A stretch of 10,004 nt of DNA from Sulfurimonas sp. (GCA_003978465.1 QNZS01000073.1:1-10004); one strand, 5' to 3'; shown: positions 3,020 to 10,004, counted from the stretch's first letter. Translations and numbers: made by a program. The notes: generated from the letters alone by a model not told the origin.

Positions 3020-3634
3020 CTATTTATTTTTAATCAAATCATCAATAGCACTTTGAGCAATGACCATATCTTCCTTTCTTCCAGACATAAAAACTCTTCC
3101 GGAAGCACCAATCATTTGTACATCATTGATTATAGCTTGCGGTGCAGCTCTTTCAGCCTCATTGGCTGCTTTGCAAGCAAACAAAGCTGGAGTCATTTCA
3201 CAAACGAGTAATGATGATCCAGAGATCAACATTGAAGCTGATCTTGTCCGATTTAAAATAATAGAATGTTGATCTGATATATTTTCAATAATATCACGGT
3301 ACAATATCTTTGGAAGTAGTTGATCAGAAGGTTTTGCACTGATACCATCCAGAATGGCTTTCCCAGCAGACTCCAGTTCAGCTTCAATGCTTGAGTGGAG
3401 TTCCAGCAATCCAAACTGACGTTCAGTAAACAAAATTCCTGGTTCCATGTCAGGTGAGGCTTTAAGTGCCAAATCTACTATTCTATGGATTGATAATGCT
3501 GGTGCAACTTCAACAATTAAACTATGTTCACCAGCATAAACTGGATATCCTCTTGCACGAGTTGGACTACTTAAGTAAGCAGCAAACTGTGGTTGTAAGT
3601 CCAAGATTGGTAAATAGACCCTCAGTTCAGTCAT
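3020..3634 (-). CDS. tandem BMC-domain shell protein (BMC-T), possibly permuted EutL/PduB-like
   Basis: 204 aa with two consecutive segments following the BMC-domain pattern (beta-strand / A-rich helix ...ALKAS..., ...ACKAANEAERA... / G-rich hairpin / A-rich helix). N-terminal LPILDLQPQF resembles the EutL N-terminus. Paralogue of ORF 4763..5371. Confidence 0.55.
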   Translation of the reverse strand: MTELRVYLPILDLQPQFAAYLSSPTRARGYPVYAGEHSLIVEVAPALSIHRIVDLALKASPDMEPGILFTERQFGLLELHSSIEAELESAGKAILDGISAKPSDQLLPKILYRDIIENISDQHSIILNRTRSASMLISGSSLLVCEMTPALFACKAANEAERAAPQAIINDVQMIGASGRVFMSGRKEDMVIAQSAIDDLIKNK

Positions 3635-3687: not shown

Positions 3688-3969
3688 TTATTTCCCGTCA
3701 AGAGAGAAGTATTTCCCTAGGTCGGTATGGGGCCGTGGTATCACATGAACAGAAATGAGTTCTCCTACTTCATTAGCAGTTTCTGCTCCTGCTTCAGTTG
3801 CTGCCTTTACAGCGCCAACATCACCTTTTATGATAACTGATACAAGGCCATCACCAACCTCTTCCCTTCCAGCAATGGTTACATTAGCTGCTTTAACCAT
3901 TGCATCCGCAGCAGCAAGTGATGCGACATAACCTTTTGTTTCAATCATTCCTATAGCTTGATTGGACAT
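3688..3969 (-). CDS. BMC-H hexameric shell protein (PduA/EutM/CcmK family)
   Basis: 93 aa. [26 protein letters not shown]...[13 protein letters not shown]...VHVIPRPH is the canonical PF00936 signature. Confidence 0.92.
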
Positions 3970-4069: not shown

Positions 4070-4312
4070 TTACTCCTTCTCATCAATAGAACCAATGATT
4101 AGAGAATCAATTGGTGCCTTGAATTCTGTAAAATAACCGGCTGCAACAGAACCTTGAGTTAACAATACCGCTTCTCCTACGGCACATCCTAACGGGTCGT
4201 AAGCAATAATATTTTCACCGCTTTCAACTTCTACTTCCAAATACCCTCCCTTGGGAAGCTTATCAACATGTTTAGATGACCAAATTTGGCCTTTTACCCT
4301 TCCTCTGATCAT
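4070..4312 (-). CDS. BMC vertex protein (BMC-P pentamer, EutN/PduN/CcmL family)
   Basis: 80 aa. MIRGRVKGQIWSSKH...GEAVLLTQGSVAAG matches the PF03319 size and pattern (N-terminal IxGxVxG). 4-nt overlap with the upstream gene. Confidence 0.85.
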   Translation of the reverse strand: MIRGRVKGQIWSSKHVDKLPKGGYLEVEVESGENIIAYDPLGCAVGEAVLLTQGSVAAGYFTEFKAPIDSLIIGSIDEKE

Positions 4313-4755
4313 ATTTGTGTCCTTTCCATTTTTATCCCCTTTTTACGTAACTCATCTTTTGCCAAAGGGGTTAATTTAGCATTTTTTAAAACCTGCAAAA
4401 CAGTAATATTTTCATCCAATTTTGCTATATCATATTCTGTAATCAAACCATCTTCTATTTTGTTTGAAGTAGGATGAGAAGTACAAGATCTACTATTTAA
4501 ATTAGCAGATGATGGCACATCTAAATGAAAAATAATATCCCCATTTTCAATGTTTGAAAATCCATCAGTTTCTCTTACAATATTCAATATTTTTTTAACA
4601 AATTTCATTAGATCTTCATCCGTTCTGATAGAGACTATTACTTCTCTAGTAGTTTTCTGATCCAACGAAACTGACTCCTTGTTGATTGAAGCTATCTCTT
4701 CTACCAACAATTCACGTATTATTTTTCTAATTTCTTTCCCCACAGTTGGCCTCAT
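4309..4755 (-). CDS. hypothetical 148-aa protein with N-terminal amphipathic helix (encapsulation-peptide-like); BMC-associated protein of unknown function
   Basis: Embedded between shell genes and coupled to the vertex gene. N-terminal GKEIRKIIRELLVEEIASI has i/i+3/i+4 hydrophobic periodicity. No catalytic motif recognised by eye. C-terminal ...LKNAKLTPLAKDELRKKGI. Confidence 0.5.
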   Translation of the reverse strand: MRPTVGKEIRKIIRELLVEEIASINKESVSLDQKTTREVIVSIRTDEDLMKFVKKILNIVRETDGFSNIENGDIIFHLDVPSSANLNSRSCTSHPTSNKIEDGLITEYDIAKLDENITVLQVLKNAKLTPLAKDELRKKGIKMERTQI

Positions 4756-4762
4756 CTATTGT

Positions 4763-5371
4763 TCATTGTTTTCGTAAGGCCAACTCAGCAGCTTCACGCG
4801 CGTTACGTATCTCAGCTTCGCTACCAGACAGGTAAAGTCGACCATTTGCACCAATCATACGATAGTCAATTATTTTTATATTAGCTTTTTTTTCTGCTTC
4901 ATTGCAGGCTAAAATTGCGTAGGATGCTGGTTGGCATTCCAATAGATAAAGAGACTCCCCTCCTAAAATCATCGAACCTAACTTATTTCGATTAATTAAA
5001 TAAGCATGTTGGTTTTCGACTCGCGTAACTATCTTTGAAGCAAGAATAGTTGCTGGCTTAGCATCTTTGGGAGTCGCTCCTAAACTTTTCAATACTGCTT
5101 CTGCACTTGCTTTGACTTCTGCTGTAGAATCGGCATGAAACTCTAGATACCCAAATTGACGTTCTACAACCAAAATGCCAGCCTTAACATTTGCGCCTTT
5201 CAAAGCAACATCTGTTAAAGCCTCAATGTCTAAACCAGGTGCAATTTCAATGATCTGAGACGCCATATTTTTACGAGGCAATGAGCCTCTCATCCAAGTT
5301 GCAATATAAGCCAAAGTTTGAGGTTGCAACTGATCAATGAATATAAAAGAACGTAATTCAGCCATGTACAC
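4763..5371 (-). CDS. tandem BMC-domain shell protein (BMC-T), paralogue of 3020..3634
   Basis: 202 aa. Two BMC-like segments (SQIIEIAPGLDIEALTDVALKGANVKA...; ...AILACNEAEKKANIKIIDYRMIGANGRLYLSGSEAEIRNA). Shares the N-terminal ELR...D(Q)LQPQ..AY motif with the other BMC-T. Confidence 0.55.
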   Translation of the reverse strand: MYMAELRSFIFIDQLQPQTLAYIATWMRGSLPRKNMASQIIEIAPGLDIEALTDVALKGANVKAGILVVERQFGYLEFHADSTAEVKASAEAVLKSLGATPKDAKPATILASKIVTRVENQHAYLINRNKLGSMILGGESLYLLECQPASYAILACNEAEKKANIKIIDYRMIGANGRLYLSGSEAEIRNAREAAELALRKQ

Positions 5372-5374
5372 AAA

Positions 5375-6952
5375 TCATTTTTTCAGAACATTCTTAAGCT
5401 CTTCCGCAATCAATTTACGGAGTTCTTCTCTGTTCACATTATCAATTGAGAAACTGGTGCTTGTCGAGGTTGTATCCACTCGACGAGACTTTGGTGAACC
5501 TGGTACTCCATCTGATGGAGACCTTGGCAATGGACCGTCTAATGATAAAGACAGTTCATTAAATTTACCAAAAGCTACAGACGGATCTGAATTATAAGCA
5601 ATTTGTGTCCAATGAATTAGATGTTGTGGACCAAGATTTTCACCAAGTGAACTCCTCCCATAAAATCCAGTACCTATGGTAAATGATGGAGCCAGATTGG
5701 TGTTAAACCCTGATGCCCCTAAACTACAAGAGGCATTTACTACTACTCGATAACATTCGACTCTTGATGCAAAATCAAGAATCATTCTCTCGTTTTGACT
5801 ATGTATGACAGCCGAATGACCAGCACCCGTTGCTCTAAGCGTAGCCCTTGACTGAGCGATTGCTTGTTTGGGACTGTTTGCAACATAAAAAGACAGTACA
5901 GGGCAAAGTTTTTCTCTAGCTAACGGTTCTTCAATACCGATACTGTTAATTGGTGTTACAAGGATTAGTGTTTTTTTGGGAACCCGGATGCCGCATTCAC
6001 GTGCAATCCAAACTGCATCACGGCCTAAAGCCTCAACGTTAAAGCCATTGGGGTGAAAAAGATAATTGCGTATTTGTACTACCTCATTATTATTGCAAAT
6101 ATAGGCTCCTTCATTTTTCAAACTTTTGCGAAGGGGTTTGTCAACATCCGTCAAAGTGATGAGGTTAGATTCACTGGTACAAAGTACGGAATTGTCAAAA
6201 CTTTTAGATGTCACAATTTGATTTGCTGCCAATGCAATATCTGCCGATGAATCAACGAATACAGGCGCATTACCTGGACCAACTCCTATGGCCGGATTAG
6301 AAGAAGAATAAGCTGCACGAACCATTGCTGTACCACCAGTTGCCAGGATCACGTTCGTTTTTGGTGATGACATGAATTCTTCTATCAACGGAATAGACGG
6401 GGTTTCTAATACTTGTATTGCCCCCTCAGGCGCTCCAGAAGAAATTGCAGCCTCTGTCAAAATTCGAACTGCATCTATACATGATTTCTTTGCTGCTGGA
6501 TGTGGGCTAATAACAATTGAGTTTCGTGTAATTAGTGCAAGAATAATTTTAAAATTCAGTGTTGAAATAGGATTTGTCGATGGAATCAAAGCAAATATTA
6601 CTCCCGCAGGTCTTGGGATTTCTACAATTTTCTTTTCTTCTTTAACACGCATCGAAACAAGGTCTTGCTCTCTATAATAATCTACTAATGGTTTTGCTGT
6701 GAACTCATTTTTCAGCTTCTTGTGTGAAACTACCCCAAAACCTGTCTCAACAACAACTTGTTCGGCCCATTCCCCCGCATGACTATGGGCAACGTTGGCT
6801 ACGGCATCAACAATTTTCATTGTTCTTTTTTTATCGAATCTCTGAAATATATATGATGCCCACCGCGCTCGCTCTAAAACTATGTCAGCACGCCCCGATA
6901 AAGATGCTTGAGATTCTGAGATATCAACTAGAGTTCTGATTTGTGGTTCCAT
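5375..6952 (-). CDS. CoA-acylating aldehyde dehydrogenase (PduP/EutE-like) with C-terminal extension: P/S/T-rich linker plus amphipathic helix
   Basis: 525 aa. ALDH-fold blocks (IVISPHPAAKKS..., ATGGTAMVRAAY..., active-site context FDNSVLCTSESNLI, ...GTGFYGRSSLGEN). The last ~55 aa are GPLPRSPSDGVPGSPKSRRVDTTSTSTS...NREELRKLIAEELKNVLKK. The start codon overlaps the upstream stop (TGATG). Confidence 0.85.
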   Translation of the reverse strand: MEPQIRTLVDISESQASLSGRADIVLERARWASYIFQRFDKKRTMKIVDAVANVAHSHAGEWAEQVVVETGFGVVSHKKLKNEFTAKPLVDYYREQDLVSMRVKEEKKIVEIPRPAGVIFALIPSTNPISTLNFKIILALITRNSIVISPHPAAKKSCIDAVRILTEAAISSGAPEGAIQVLETPSIPLIEEFMSSPKTNVILATGGTAMVRAAYSSSNPAIGVGPGNAPVFVDSSADIALAANQIVTSKSFDNSVLCTSESNLITLTDVDKPLRKSLKNEGAYICNNNEVVQIRNYLFHPNGFNVEALGRDAVWIARECGIRVPKKTLILVTPINSIGIEEPLAREKLCPVLSFYVANSPKQAIAQSRATLRATGAGHSAVIHSQNERMILDFASRVECYRVVVNASCSLGASGFNTNLAPSFTIGTGFYGRSSLGENLGPQHLIHWTQIAYNSDPSVAFGKFNELSLSLDGPLPRSPSDGVPGSPKSRRVDTTSTSTSFSIDNVNREELRKLIAEELKNVLKK

Positions 6953-8229
6953 CAGTGTATACTCCTCCGGTTTCTGACCCCAAGGACTTCCTCTCGTGCT
7001 TGTTCAATTCCTATTTGCACCCTTCCTAAAAGTTCCTCACACTCCGACTGTGTCATTAACAAACCTGGTTTGAACTGAAGCACACTTGGGTCAAGTGCTG
7101 AAAAAATTGCCCAAACACCGTTTTCATAAAGATATTTCATAACCGGTTTTGCACCTTGTTCATGACTGAACTCTAAACCCATAATGAGACCGTGTTGACG
7201 AATACCTATAAAGAAATCCGAATACTCTTCCATAATTTCATCCAAACCTGATCGAATATAATCAGAAATAAAATGAACTACAGACCGAACTTCTGGACGT
7301 TGGACGATTTCAAGAGTTTTCATTGCTACCACACATCCAAGCTCTGCCCCACCCATCGTTGACATATGACCAAAACCATCTTCTTTTAACCAGCCACTAC
7401 ATTTTTCTGAAATTAAGACACAGGCAATTGGGTACATACCTCCAGAAATTCCTTTGCCGGTAACCATAATGTCAGGCTGGACTTTATACTTAGTACATCC
7501 CCAAAGTTCTCCTGTACGCATTAGACCTGTTTGAACTTCATCAGCTATATATAAGGTGTCGTATCGTTCACAAAGTTGTTTGACTGATGGAAGGTATCCT
7601 TCCTCTGGCATTGGGAAACCATATGTTGCTGGGATAGTTTCCATAATTACTGCAGCCACGTCTCGTCTTTTTAGAGCATCTTCCATTGTGTTGAGATCAT
7701 TGAACGGAACTTGGACAAATTCACCAACAGTATCTTCCGATAAAAATAATTTGGAAAAACGGTCATCTCCAGTTTTAACAGCCAGTCCTGTGTGACCATG
7801 ATAAGCTTTGATTATTGACACAATTTTTCTTCTCTGTGTGGCGTGACGTGCAGTTTTAAGCGCAATATCAACAGCTTCTCCGCCCCCTGAACCATATGCT
7901 GTATATCTCAACTCCGGACCAGGTGCACTCTCAGCCAAAGCCTCTGCTAAGGCAGTCCGTGCAAGTGCCGGAAAATGATGATTACCCATATCAAAGCGAG
8001 AAGTCCCAGCTTTTAGTACCTCAACCAACTCTGGATGTCGGTGCCCCAAATTATAGGTTCCTCCATTTAGATGGACATCAATCAAACGCCGACCATCCAT
8101 ATCATGAAGATAATATTTCTCTCGATGATCGATCACAAGATCAATCCCCATATCTTGCCAATCTTGTGTTTTTCCAGGATTCCAGAACGTTTTAGAACGT
8201 TCTAGAAAATCAATTTTTTCTTGACTCAT
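6952..8229 (-). CDS. class-III aminotransferase-fold PLP-dependent enzyme; candidate amino-alcohol O-phosphate phospho-lyase (or omega-transaminase)
   Basis: 425 aa. YGSGGGEAVDIALKTAR (PLP phosphate pocket), DEVQTGLMRTGELWG (class-III DEVQTGxGRTG block), candidate Schiff-base Lys in DIMVTGKGISGG. Confidence 0.8.
   Translation of the reverse strand: MSQEKIDFLERSKTFWNPGKTQDWQDMGIDLVIDHREKYYLHDMDGRRLIDVHLNGGTYNLGHRHPELVEVLKAGTSRFDMGNHHFPALARTALAEALAESAPGPELRYTAYGSGGGEAVDIALKTARHATQRRKIVSIIKAYHGHTGLAVKTGDDRFSKLFLSEDTVGEFVQVPFNDLNTMEDALKRRDVAAVIMETIPATYGFPMPEEGYLPSVKQLCERYDTLYIADEVQTGLMRTGELWGCTKYKVQPDIMVTGKGISGGMYPIACVLISEKCSGWLKEDGFGHMSTMGGAELGCVVAMKTLEIVQRPEVRSVVHFISDYIRSGLDEIMEEYSDFFIGIRQHGLIMGLEFSHEQGAKPVMKYLYENGVWAIFSALDPSVLQFKPGLLMTQSECEELLGRVQIGIEQAREEVLGVRNRRSIH
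6962..6968 (-). promoter_or_regulatory. Shine-Dalgarno (GGAGGAG) for the aldehyde dehydrogenase, inside the 3' end of the upstream gene
   Basis: Plus-strand CTCCTCC 9 nt upstream (mRNA sense) of the ATG at 6950-6952. Supports translational coupling. Confidence 0.6.
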
Positions 8230-8384: not shown

Positions 8385-9614
8385 CTATGTATTTTGAATA
8401 GTTTTAACATAGTTTGCCCACCACACCATCATTTTTCTTCTTTCTTTTAGATACTTGTTTCTATTGTATCTATGTATTTTATTCAGTTCCGTGCATGCAA
8501 GTTGTTCCTCTATAACATTATGATACCAGAGACCGCTTTCACTCAATACCTCAGAAGCAAGAGTTCTGAGACCATTGATAGTGTTTCTTCCCGCGTATCC
8601 TAATCGATTTGAAAAATATAACAGTGTGTTTTCACTCATTGCTTTTTGTGAGTTACGGACTTGAGTAAATACATATCCATTCTTGCCGGAATATTCTTGC
8701 ATTTCTTTTAAGATACAAACTGCTTGAGAAGAAAGAGGAACATAATGTTCGCCTCTCATTTTCATTCTTGTTGATGGAATCACCCAAAGGGGTTCAGCAC
8801 AATCAATATCAAACTCACTCCAATCAGCAAAACGTAATTCTGAAGATCGAACGAAGGTTAATATAAGAAAGTTCATTGCAAGCACTGTAGATAGGTTTGT
8901 TACTTTGTCAGCTTTCATTCTTGAAAGAAATTCTGGAAGTTCTGAGATTGGAATTGAACTATGTGATTTTGGTTCCGGTTTTACAAAGGTCTTGTTTAGT
9001 CCTTTTGCTGGGTTGTTTATGCAAAGTTCATTAGTTTTTGCGTAGTTAAAAATTGATTCAAGTCTTTGCCGAATTCTATAACAGGTTTCGTGCTTCCCTA
9101 CGACTTCCAGTTTTTTTAACATTGAAATTACATCCTGTTTGTTGATCTTTACAATGGGTATTTCACCAAGATATGGAAAAACGTGGATGATAAGAGAATT
9201 GAATACAACCTTTGAATATTCCTTTGTCCATAAAGTTTCTTGTCTAACGTGCCATTCTTGGGCAACTTGTTGAAAAGTAAACCCTTTAATTTCTTCACGG
9301 CGTTTCTTTTTATCATAATTTTCTATATGCAAGCTACTCCTAAATCTTTTTTCATCAAGTGGATTGATCCCCTCCTTTATTTTTTTGTTTGCTTCATAAC
9401 GCCTAGATCTTGCTTCGGGCAATTTAACGTTTGGCCATTTCCCAAAAGATAATACTTTCTGTTTCCCTTCAAACCAAAATTGTAATTGCCAGTATTTTTT
9501 CCCATCAGGGTAAATCCTTAGGTACATGCCATCACCATCTGTCAATTTGTATTGTTTTTCTTTTGGTTTTGCCCGTTTAATTGCTAGCTCAGTAAGTTTA
9601 TTTGTACGATTCAT
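8385..9614 (-). CDS. int: tyrosine site-specific integrase, P4-like with DUF4102-type N-terminal arm-binding domain
   Basis: 409 aa. The N-terminus LTELAIKRAKPKEKQYKLTDGDGMYLRIYPDGKKYWQLQFWFEGKQKVLSFG is the typical P4-family integrase N-domain. The C-terminus carries box I R (LTFVRSSELRFADWSEFD), K (RMKMRGEHYVPLS), box II N-G-L-R, ...QLACTELNKIHRYNRNKYLKERRKMMVWWANY with the catalytic Tyr in HRYNR. Confidence 0.88.
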   Translation of the reverse strand: MNRTNKLTELAIKRAKPKEKQYKLTDGDGMYLRIYPDGKKYWQLQFWFEGKQKVLSFGKWPNVKLPEARSRRYEANKKIKEGINPLDEKRFRSSLHIENYDKKKRREEIKGFTFQQVAQEWHVRQETLWTKEYSKVVFNSLIIHVFPYLGEIPIVKINKQDVISMLKKLEVVGKHETCYRIRQRLESIFNYAKTNELCINNPAKGLNKTFVKPEPKSHSSIPISELPEFLSRMKADKVTNLSTVLAMNFLILTFVRSSELRFADWSEFDIDCAEPLWVIPSTRMKMRGEHYVPLSSQAVCILKEMQEYSGKNGYVFTQVRNSQKAMSENTLLYFSNRLGYAGRNTINGLRTLASEVLSESGLWYHNVIEEQLACTELNKIHRYNRNKYLKERRKMMVWWANYVKTIQNT

Positions 9615-9662
9615 GAAAAATTAATTATGTTGTATGTGTAAATTACCACTAAACTTTAATAG
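9468..9662. repeat. direct repeat copy A (~195 bp; int codons 1-49 plus ~48 bp upstream)
   Basis: Identical to 9810..10004 except for one mismatch (about 9563 vs 9905, K-to-I in the fragment). Coordinates read by eye, +/-1. Confidence 0.85.
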
Positions 9663-9809
9663 TTTACCACCATTATATAATACTAATTAACTATATATAT
9701 ATAATAAATATATCATATAGTTACAATGGATTATATATTGACCAAATGAGAAAAATTATATCTTATATCCTTTTTAAGGGAAACGAACCCGCGTTTAAAA
9801 TGATGCAAA
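9663..9809. other. AT-rich 147-bp spacer between repeat copies, containing a (TA)n tract
   Basis: ...actatatatatataataaatatatcatatag... with very low GC. No ORF. The sequence diverges from int immediately at the repeat boundary. Confidence 0.5.
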
Positions 9810-9957
9810 CTTCAAACCAAAATTGTAATTGCCAGTATTTTTTCCCATCAGGGTAAATCCTTAGGTACATGCCATCACCATCTGTCAATTTGTATTGTTT
9901 TTCTATTGGTTTTGCCCGTTTAATTGCTAGCTCAGTAAGTTTATTTGTACGATTCAT
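9763..9957 (-). pseudogene. truncated integrase 5' fragment (first 49 codons of the int N-domain, then out-of-context tail)
   Basis: MNRTNKLTELAIKRAKPIEKQYKLTDGDGMYLRIYPDGKKYWQLQFWFE is identical to the int N-terminus except K18I. It then reads into the AT-rich spacer (VCIILNAGSFPLKRI*). Confidence 0.75.
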
Positions 9958-10004
9958 GAAAAATTAATTATGTTGTATGTGTAAATTACCACTAAACTTT
10001 AATA
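9810..10004. repeat. direct repeat copy B (runs to the window edge; may extend further)
   Basis: See copy A. Truncated by the window end, so the true repeat length is unknown. Confidence 0.85.

Follow-up and report, generated by a model that had tools for sequence, protein, structure and literature searches.

A conserved protein encoded between the trimer and pentamer genes of RMM/AAUM microcompartment loci, a candidate PduM-like tether or assembly protein

What is the role of a small protein whose gene lies among microcompartment shell genes, directly upstream of the gene for the vertex pentamer? The question is raised by an open reading frame, hereafter X, in a 10,004-nucleotide stretch of DNA (the window). 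In the ORF listing of the window, X is an ATG-initiated frame of 148 aa at 4309..4755 on the minus strand. The first-pass annotation placed it between shell genes and proposed that it might be a novel cargo, scaffold, assembly or regulatory factor specific to this type of metabolosome. The placement is correct: X has a BMC-T gene on one side and a BMC-P gene on the other. The main features of the window are the following.

6952-8229, minus strand: class-III aminotransferase, first in operon order
5375-6952, minus strand: acylating aldehyde dehydrogenase (AldDH), in the operon
4763..5371, minus strand: BMC-T, a CcmP/CsoS1D-like double-stacking trimer, directly upstream of X (NF053796, E 7.4e-62)
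4309..4755, minus strand: X, 148 aa (144 aa if the GTG at 4743 is the true start), a conserved RMM/AAUM-locus protein
4309..4312, minus strand: ATGA stop/start overlap of X and BMC-P, candidate translational coupling
4070..4312, minus strand: BMC-P, an EutN/CcmL vertex pentamer, directly downstream of X (PF03319, E 2.5e-16)
3688..3969, minus strand: BMC-H, downstream of BMC-P
3020..3634, minus strand: second BMC-T, downstream of BMC-H, with the operon end at 3020
8385-9614: phage-type integrase

Genes for an ABC permease, a short-chain dehydrogenase and an APH-type kinase lie on the plus strand and converge on the operon. The first BMC-T gene is separated from X by 7 nt. Its start is a GTG in the window ORF call (202 aa), and an ATG two codons further in close variants (200 aa). 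PF27545 (CsoS1D_N) matches the homologues of this trimer in related loci.

The combination of enzymes and shell proteins identifies the operon as encoding an RMM/AAUM (aminoacetone/1-amino-2-propanol) microcompartment. A passage in Sutter et al. on such a locus fits the window, and the integrase-adjacent setting in a marine lineage is already in the literature. The operon has no isochorismatase and no large/medium or small diol-dehydratase subunits, and beyond its end it converges on the kinase gene. In some proteobacterial relatives (L001-L003, ~10650-14100), the isochorismatase and diol-dehydratase subunits directly follow the second BMC-T. The dehydratase is considered non-essential to RMM2 (Sutter et al.).

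At the integrase end of the window we observe a direct repeat (9467-9661 and 9810-10004, 99% identical) composed of the 5' end of the integrase gene, about its first 49 codons, and the upstream region. The repeat runs off the window end and gives a shortened 64-aa ORF at 9763-9957. The same repeat is found as a tandem unit of ~342 nt in a close variant contig (L037, 1421-2100). No tRNA gene was found beside the integrase or the repeat, which may be an attachment site or a remnant of integration.

X belongs to a large family. An exhaustive HMMER scan retrieved 220 cluster representatives at E<=1e-3, 57 of them at <=1e-10. The homologues are mostly ~140-150 aa long, nearly all within 134-217 aa, and match X from end to end at 28-43% identity. 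A word-indexed search returned only relatives of at least 92% identity from marine metagenomes, the source of 87 near-identical X proteins. The window copy is a divergent member of the family from a marine lineage (Marinimicrobia-binned), beside a phage-type integrase. As for the labels of its near relatives, one 98%-identical protein comes from a Marinimicrobia MAG and another, a fragment, from a Gammaproteobacteria MAG. In an alignment of 104 members, P130 and A132 are invariant, while R14, E20, V41, L49, F52, G72, F76, L78 and E107 are nearly so, together with the C-terminal columns T129, L131, D134, R137, I141 and R145. The protein is Cys-poor, as first described, with C91 as its single cysteine.

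The genomic context of the family is uniform. The order AldDH, BMC-T, X, BMC-P, BMC-H, BMC-T is found in every related locus with flanks examined. The sample comprises 27 loci from a genome scan, three homologues identified through exact sequence look-up, and two each of long divergent members and close variants. The genome scan used a single pattern derived from a 12-sequence subset and biased to Proteobacteria. Hosts include Paracoccaceae, Roseovarius, Stappia, Rhizobium, Gammaproteobacteria and a gutless-worm symbiont. No homologue outside a microcompartment locus was found, every locus examined being of this kind. This constancy bears out the earlier view that X is under selection and associated with the microcompartment, as does the presence of X in the same slot in each of these syntenic loci. 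X is a real, conserved and unnamed component of RMM/AAUM loci.

The junction with the pentamer gene is equally well kept. The 4-nt overlap noted in the first-pass annotation is present, the X stop codon overlapping the BMC-P ATG within ATGA at 4309-4312, and it recurs in 30 of the 30 loci measured. The exceptions are L004 and L038, where a gap of ~145-155 nt separates X from BMC-P. The opposite end of the frame is ambiguous. The ATG at 4755 has no Shine-Dalgarno-like sequence, and the GTG at 4743 has a GAGG 6 nt upstream. Initiation at the GTG (144 aa) agrees with the N-termini of the family; database gene calls are split between 148 and 144 aa, and many use the GTG.

The family extends to actinobacteria. 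The pRHL2 locus of Rhodococcus jostii RHA1 is among those that gave RMM its name. There, the X slot is occupied by a 145-aa 'hypothetical protein', WP_011600239.1, which is a full-length X homologue (hhalign 99.3%, E 1.6e-20, 136 aligned columns). It resembles X in its position between BMC-T and BMC-P and in its 4-nt overlaps, identical in two copies of the gene, and differs in its 26% identity to the X family alignment and its actinobacterial host of high GC. The block BMC-T, X, BMC-P, BMC-H occurs twice on pRHL2 (L034, 7001-8597 and 10894-12490) with identical protein accessions, and the two blocks flank a third BMC gene and an aminotransferase. By full-length homology and by its place between BMC-T(dp) and BMC-P in an operon of aminotransferase, AldDH and shell genes, X is a member of this unnamed WP_011600239-like RMM/AAUM family. 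Its supposed novelty to the present locus is not borne out, the gene being part of the type RMM locus of R. jostii.

The family has no name and no Pfam family. Window X gave no match in Pfam, and the main BMC catalogue (Sutter 2021 supplement) lists no such protein in its HMM table. In the Mycobacterium smegmatis part of that catalogue, msmeg_0271 and 0275 are listed as BMC-T, 0272 as BMC-H and 0273 as BMC-P, and the 0274 slot is unlisted. From this numbering we infer that the M. smegmatis counterpart of X occupies the msmeg_0274 slot; no mention of MSMEG_0274 was found in the literature searched. This gene among the shell genes is unnamed even though the mycobacterial RMM/AAUM shell has been well studied structurally.

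The rate at which X changes sets it apart within the operon. Compared with alpha- and gammaproteobacterial loci (L001-L032), the shell and enzyme proteins of the window show 45-89% identity, and X only 27-37%. By this measure no other gene of the operon evolves nearly as fast as X. The DNA of the window operon has 35-43% GC, despite the 45-89% protein identity to proteobacterial loci. Within the lineage, dN/dS of X is 0.45 and 0.95, as against 0.1-0.6 for its neighbours, from only 11-14 substitutions, a number too small to be informative, and short-range constraint on X appears weak or unmeasurable.

AlphaFold2 with the family alignment models X with a mean pLDDT of 85.7; without an alignment the value is 35. 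The prediction, together with the sequence comparisons described below, divides the protein into four parts.

4672..4746, minus strand: N-terminal helix, residues 4-28, with the encapsulation-peptide-like motif EIRKIIRELL (AlphaFold2; pLDDT 94 for block 11-20)
4522..4647, minus strand: middle domain, residues 37-78, predicted strand-helix-helix-strand (AlphaFold2 pLDDT 93-97)
4465..4521, minus strand: variable disordered linker, residues 79-97 (low pLDDT and 47% variable positions)
4312..4464, minus strand: C-terminal module, residues 98-148, core ~103-147, with TPLAxD..R..GI (similarity to TIGR02536 and PduM C-termini)

The C-terminal module is predicted to contain a small alpha/beta domain at residues 98-146. 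The linker has pLDDT values of 53-63 (blocks covering residues 81-100), falling below 50 for residues 87-93, and its length variation accounts for the range of family sizes from 134 to 217 aa. Among 81 close variants, 47% of linker positions vary; the helix and the two domains have 20-25% variable positions, and residues 126-148 show no variation at all. For the middle domain, no match outside the X family and no significant PDB sequence or fold match was found. PDB sequence searches, with the single X sequence and then with the family profile, gave chance-level matches only, such as T4 lysozyme, YebT and a cytochrome c555 repeat. As no solved structure matched X, its fold gives no hint of a binding partner.

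The two peptides singled out at first are as described, GKEIRKIIRELLVEEIASI forming residues 6-24 and LTPLAKDELRKKGI residues 128-141. The former lies in the N-terminal helix, which had been called strongly amphipathic and likened to an encapsulation peptide. A hydrophobic pattern of i, i+3/4 and i+7/8 is indeed present in the helix, but when its residues are shuffled, 2056 of 10000 random orders attain its Eisenberg moment of 0.416, and strong amphipathicity is confirmed only in part. The helix is conserved, with the family consensus [DE]LRxLIRE[VI]LxEEL ([DE]LRxLIRExL core), and it has a motif in common with the C-terminus of the AldDH encoded in the same operon (EIRKIIRELL in X, ELRKLIAEEL in AldDH), itself a predicted encapsulation peptide.

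5378..5431, minus strand: AldDH C-terminal encapsulation-peptide-like helix, REELRKLIAEELKNVLKK, after a Pro/Ser/Gly-rich linker

In the six-frame translation of the window the motif pattern occurs only twice, at the N-terminus of X and at the C-terminus of AldDH. The AldDH C-termini of related loci, in 29 of the 29 cases where they were recovered, consist of a Pro/Gly/Ser-rich linker followed by DELRRLIAEELRDLLRK; the window has EELRKLIAEELKNVLKK. A linker followed by a terminal helix is the usual layout of encapsulation peptides. X likewise shows a terminal helix (residues 4-28; ~18 residues expected) next to a poorly conserved linker (lower confidence at residues 21-40), and the family consensus is undefined after the helix. 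As the Eisenberg moment is unremarkable against shuffled sequences, the argument for an encapsulation peptide is based on motif sharing and position, and not on amphipathicity statistics. On these grounds the AldDH C-terminal helix is a likely partner or analogue of the N-terminal helix of X.

The opposite end of the protein links X to other microcompartments. The ~120 aa beyond the helix had been left without an assignable motif, but they include the LTPLAKDELRKKGI segment, where the family is conserved most strongly and which matches the C-termini of TIGR02536 (EUT2) and PduM. Window X matches TIGR02536 with E 2.8e-5 and 23.8 bits (curated cut-off 152.6) and the PduM model TIGR04493 with E 1.4e-3 and 18.5 bits (curated cut-off 50). 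Across the 104 family members, TIGR02536 is matched by 77 (best E 5e-11, all below the cut-off), TIGR04493 by 64 (best E 1.8e-5) and the Pfam family PDU_like, PF15953, weakly by 35 (best E 3.8e-5). The match always falls at the extreme C-terminus, both of the X family members and of the two models. Because the scores fall below the curated cut-offs of PduM and TIGR02536, we regard X as a distinct, unnamed sister family and not as PduM itself.

Profile comparisons give the same picture. The PduM sequences aligned were those of Salmonella, Klebsiella and Citrobacter only, which were retrieved with a PduM sequence used solely as bait (248 bits on NF011957). Aligned with PduM by hhalign, the X family reaches 84-86% and E 5e-6 over 43 columns (X 103-147 vs PduM 121-163); no hhalign alignment to X was obtained for the body of PduM (residues ~24-120). 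Salmonella PduM obtains 13.3 bits from the X family HMM, whereas none of 4000 shuffles exceeds 7.4. These comparisons lend moderate support to homology between the C-terminal ~43 residues of PduM and X. With the TIGR02536 protein of Listeria, hhalign gives 95.5%, E 1.3e-8 and 40% identity (FLTPLAKDYL vs KLTPLAKDEL). A direct comparison of PduM with the single Listeria sequence was not significant with the thin profiles used, and the three-way link is consequently one in which X serves as the intermediate. The similarity is confined to ~45 residues.

The positions of the genes are also alike. In Salmonella, 3 nt separate the end of pduM from pduN, and in Listeria the gap from the TIGR02536 gene to eutN downstream is 14 nt. 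As judged from their sequences, then, three microcompartment types have, directly 5' of the pentamer gene, a gene for a small protein that combines an N-terminal helix with this C-terminal module.

Taken together, the motif in common with AldDH, the C-terminal module and the position of the gene directly upstream of the pentamer gene suggest a concrete PduM-like role for X. We propose, with somewhat better than even confidence, that X is a structural tether or assembly protein of the RMM/AAUM microcompartment, distantly related to PduM and to the TIGR02536 protein. Among the roles listed in the first-pass annotation, that of scaffold or assembly factor is the best reading, and those of cargo enzyme and regulator are without support. 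We infer the binding steps and the tethering function alike. The N-terminal helix would act as an encapsulation peptide and bring X into the enzyme core by co-assembly, probably by way of the same contact that the near-identical C-terminal helix of AldDH uses. The flexible linker would then bridge the gap to the shell, where the C-terminal module with its invariant TPLAxD segment would dock on a shell component, possibly at a vertex. X would in this way tie core to shell and affect closure or size, and strict translational coupling to the pentamer gene would hold it at a low, vertex-like stoichiometry. For PduM, residues 1-23 are necessary and sufficient for wild-type targeting to the Pdu core, the protein is of low abundance, and deletion of pduM or of the signal sequence leads to partial core-shell separation and oversized compartments (PMC12108088).

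The emphasis could instead lie on the vertex. X would then be present in a fixed ratio with BMC-P, and its C-terminal module would bind the pentamer or the pentamer-hexamer junction and recruit or chaperone vertices, which the helix would anchor to the core. The ATGA overlap with BMC-P in all 30 loci measured and in both RHA1 copies is consistent with such an adaptor, as is the position of the PduM and TIGR02536 genes, likewise directly 5' of the pentamer gene; the oversized compartments that follow pduM deletion are compatible with a defect in closure (PMC12108088). However, adjacency of genes is no evidence of binding, the coupling is not universal (L004 and L038), and PduM is core-localised, with core-shell separation as the reported defect (PMC12108088). 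We regard a vertex-specific adaptor as unlikely.

A role restricted to the enzyme core is another alternative, which we consider decidedly unlikely. Here X would nucleate or cross-link the core through its helix and through self-association of its domains, without contacting the shell. The helix motif common to X and the AldDH peptide would fit this role, as would the targeting of PduM by its signal sequence to the core and not to the shell (PMC12108088), and AlphaFold2 models X as two small folded domains with a flexible linker. The most conserved part of X, however, is the C-terminal module and not the helix. Moreover, this module is common to microcompartment types that differ in cargo but have homologous shell proteins, which points to a shell-side partner.

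X could also be an enzyme or a regulatory domain protein, such as one that takes part in phosphotransfer with the locus kinase. Many near-identical copies (P0003, P0004, P0012 and others) carry the JGI name 'phosphohistidine swiveling domain-containing protein', and an APH-type kinase gene is present in the locus. Several observations make this reading very improbable: window X has no Pfam match, no PEP-utilising-enzyme family is among the 25 most frequently matched of the 57 Pfam families that the 104 members hit, PDB sequence and fold searches gave no match, and no histidine is found among the invariant or nearly invariant columns. We rejected the JGI name itself, for which no Pfam, NCBIfam, PDB or fold evidence was found. 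Finally, a spurious ORF in an intergenic spacer among shell genes, for which the absent Pfam match and the high short-range dN/dS might speak, has a negligible chance of being the explanation, given hundreds of homologues, synteny and reading frame kept across phyla, and a confident AlphaFold2 model derived from covariation.

The PduM-like tether that we favour is not a new kind of system, and several proteins offer points of comparison. In concept X is like CcmN, CsoS2 and the N-terminus of PduB, linkers of low abundance in which one side carries a terminal peptide and the other contacts the shell, but a sequence relationship is neither detected nor expected. In Eut compartments, the N-terminus of EutQ is a two-sided linker between shell and cargo with a flexible middle (PMC12487888). 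The logic resembles that proposed for X: in EutQ, one short segment binds the shell, another segment binds cargo or an encapsulation peptide, and the stretch between them is flexible. The cupin acetate-kinase domain of EutQ is absent from X. EutQ residues 1-45 (LITANDI...IITPEAREVA) resemble the C-terminal module of X by eye only. As a homologue of this module the EutQ N-terminus (residues 1-99) was rejected in a weak test with a single EutQ sequence: the score of E. coli EutQ, 3.5 bits, lies among those of the shuffles, and hhalign leaves the region unaligned.

TIGR02536, found in EUT2 loci of Firmicutes, is the closest match found for the C-terminal module. The Listeria monocytogenes protein (WP_014930878.1) has TPLAKD in common with X, an N-terminal helix resembling an encapsulation peptide (MSMELDALIKAVTEEVMRRL) and a gene directly upstream of eutN, but it is 190 aa long with an unrelated central region. 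PduM (TIGR04493, NF011957, PF15953) is closer in size, with 163 aa vs 148 aa in X. Its N-terminal amphipathic signal helix, established by experiment for residues 1-23 (PMC12108088), corresponds to a predicted helix in X, its C-terminal ~43 residues align, and its gene is directly 5' of the pentamer gene. The two proteins differ in residues ~24-120 of PduM, which are unaligned, X having another middle domain and a disordered linker; in the type of microcompartment, propanediol for PduM and aminoacetone for X; and in that X scores below all curated cut-offs. X is accordingly not strictly specific to this metabolosome type, as had been suggested at first, but would form the RMM branch within a broader group of PduM-like proteins.

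We tentatively extend this comparison to a possible, though less than probable, common origin, in which PduM of PDU, TIGR02536 of EUT2 and the X family of RMM are branches of one pan-metabolosome class of assembly factors. Its members might be recognized by an N-terminal core-targeting helix, a C-terminal ~45-aa TPLA(R/K)(D/E) module that docks on the shell, at the vertex or close to it, and a location of the gene directly 5' of the pentamer gene, often with translational coupling to it. If true, many catabolic microcompartments would rely on a single conserved and hitherto unrecognised module for tethering core to shell or closing the vertices. A module common to several metabolosome types could also be of use in engineering minimal shells with cargo and in understanding how core and shell come to be joined. 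The authors of the PduM study report no known homologues outside Pdu (PMC12108088), a claim that such a class would contradict, with X and the TIGR02536 protein as the relatives of PduM in RMM/AAUM and EUT2 compartments.
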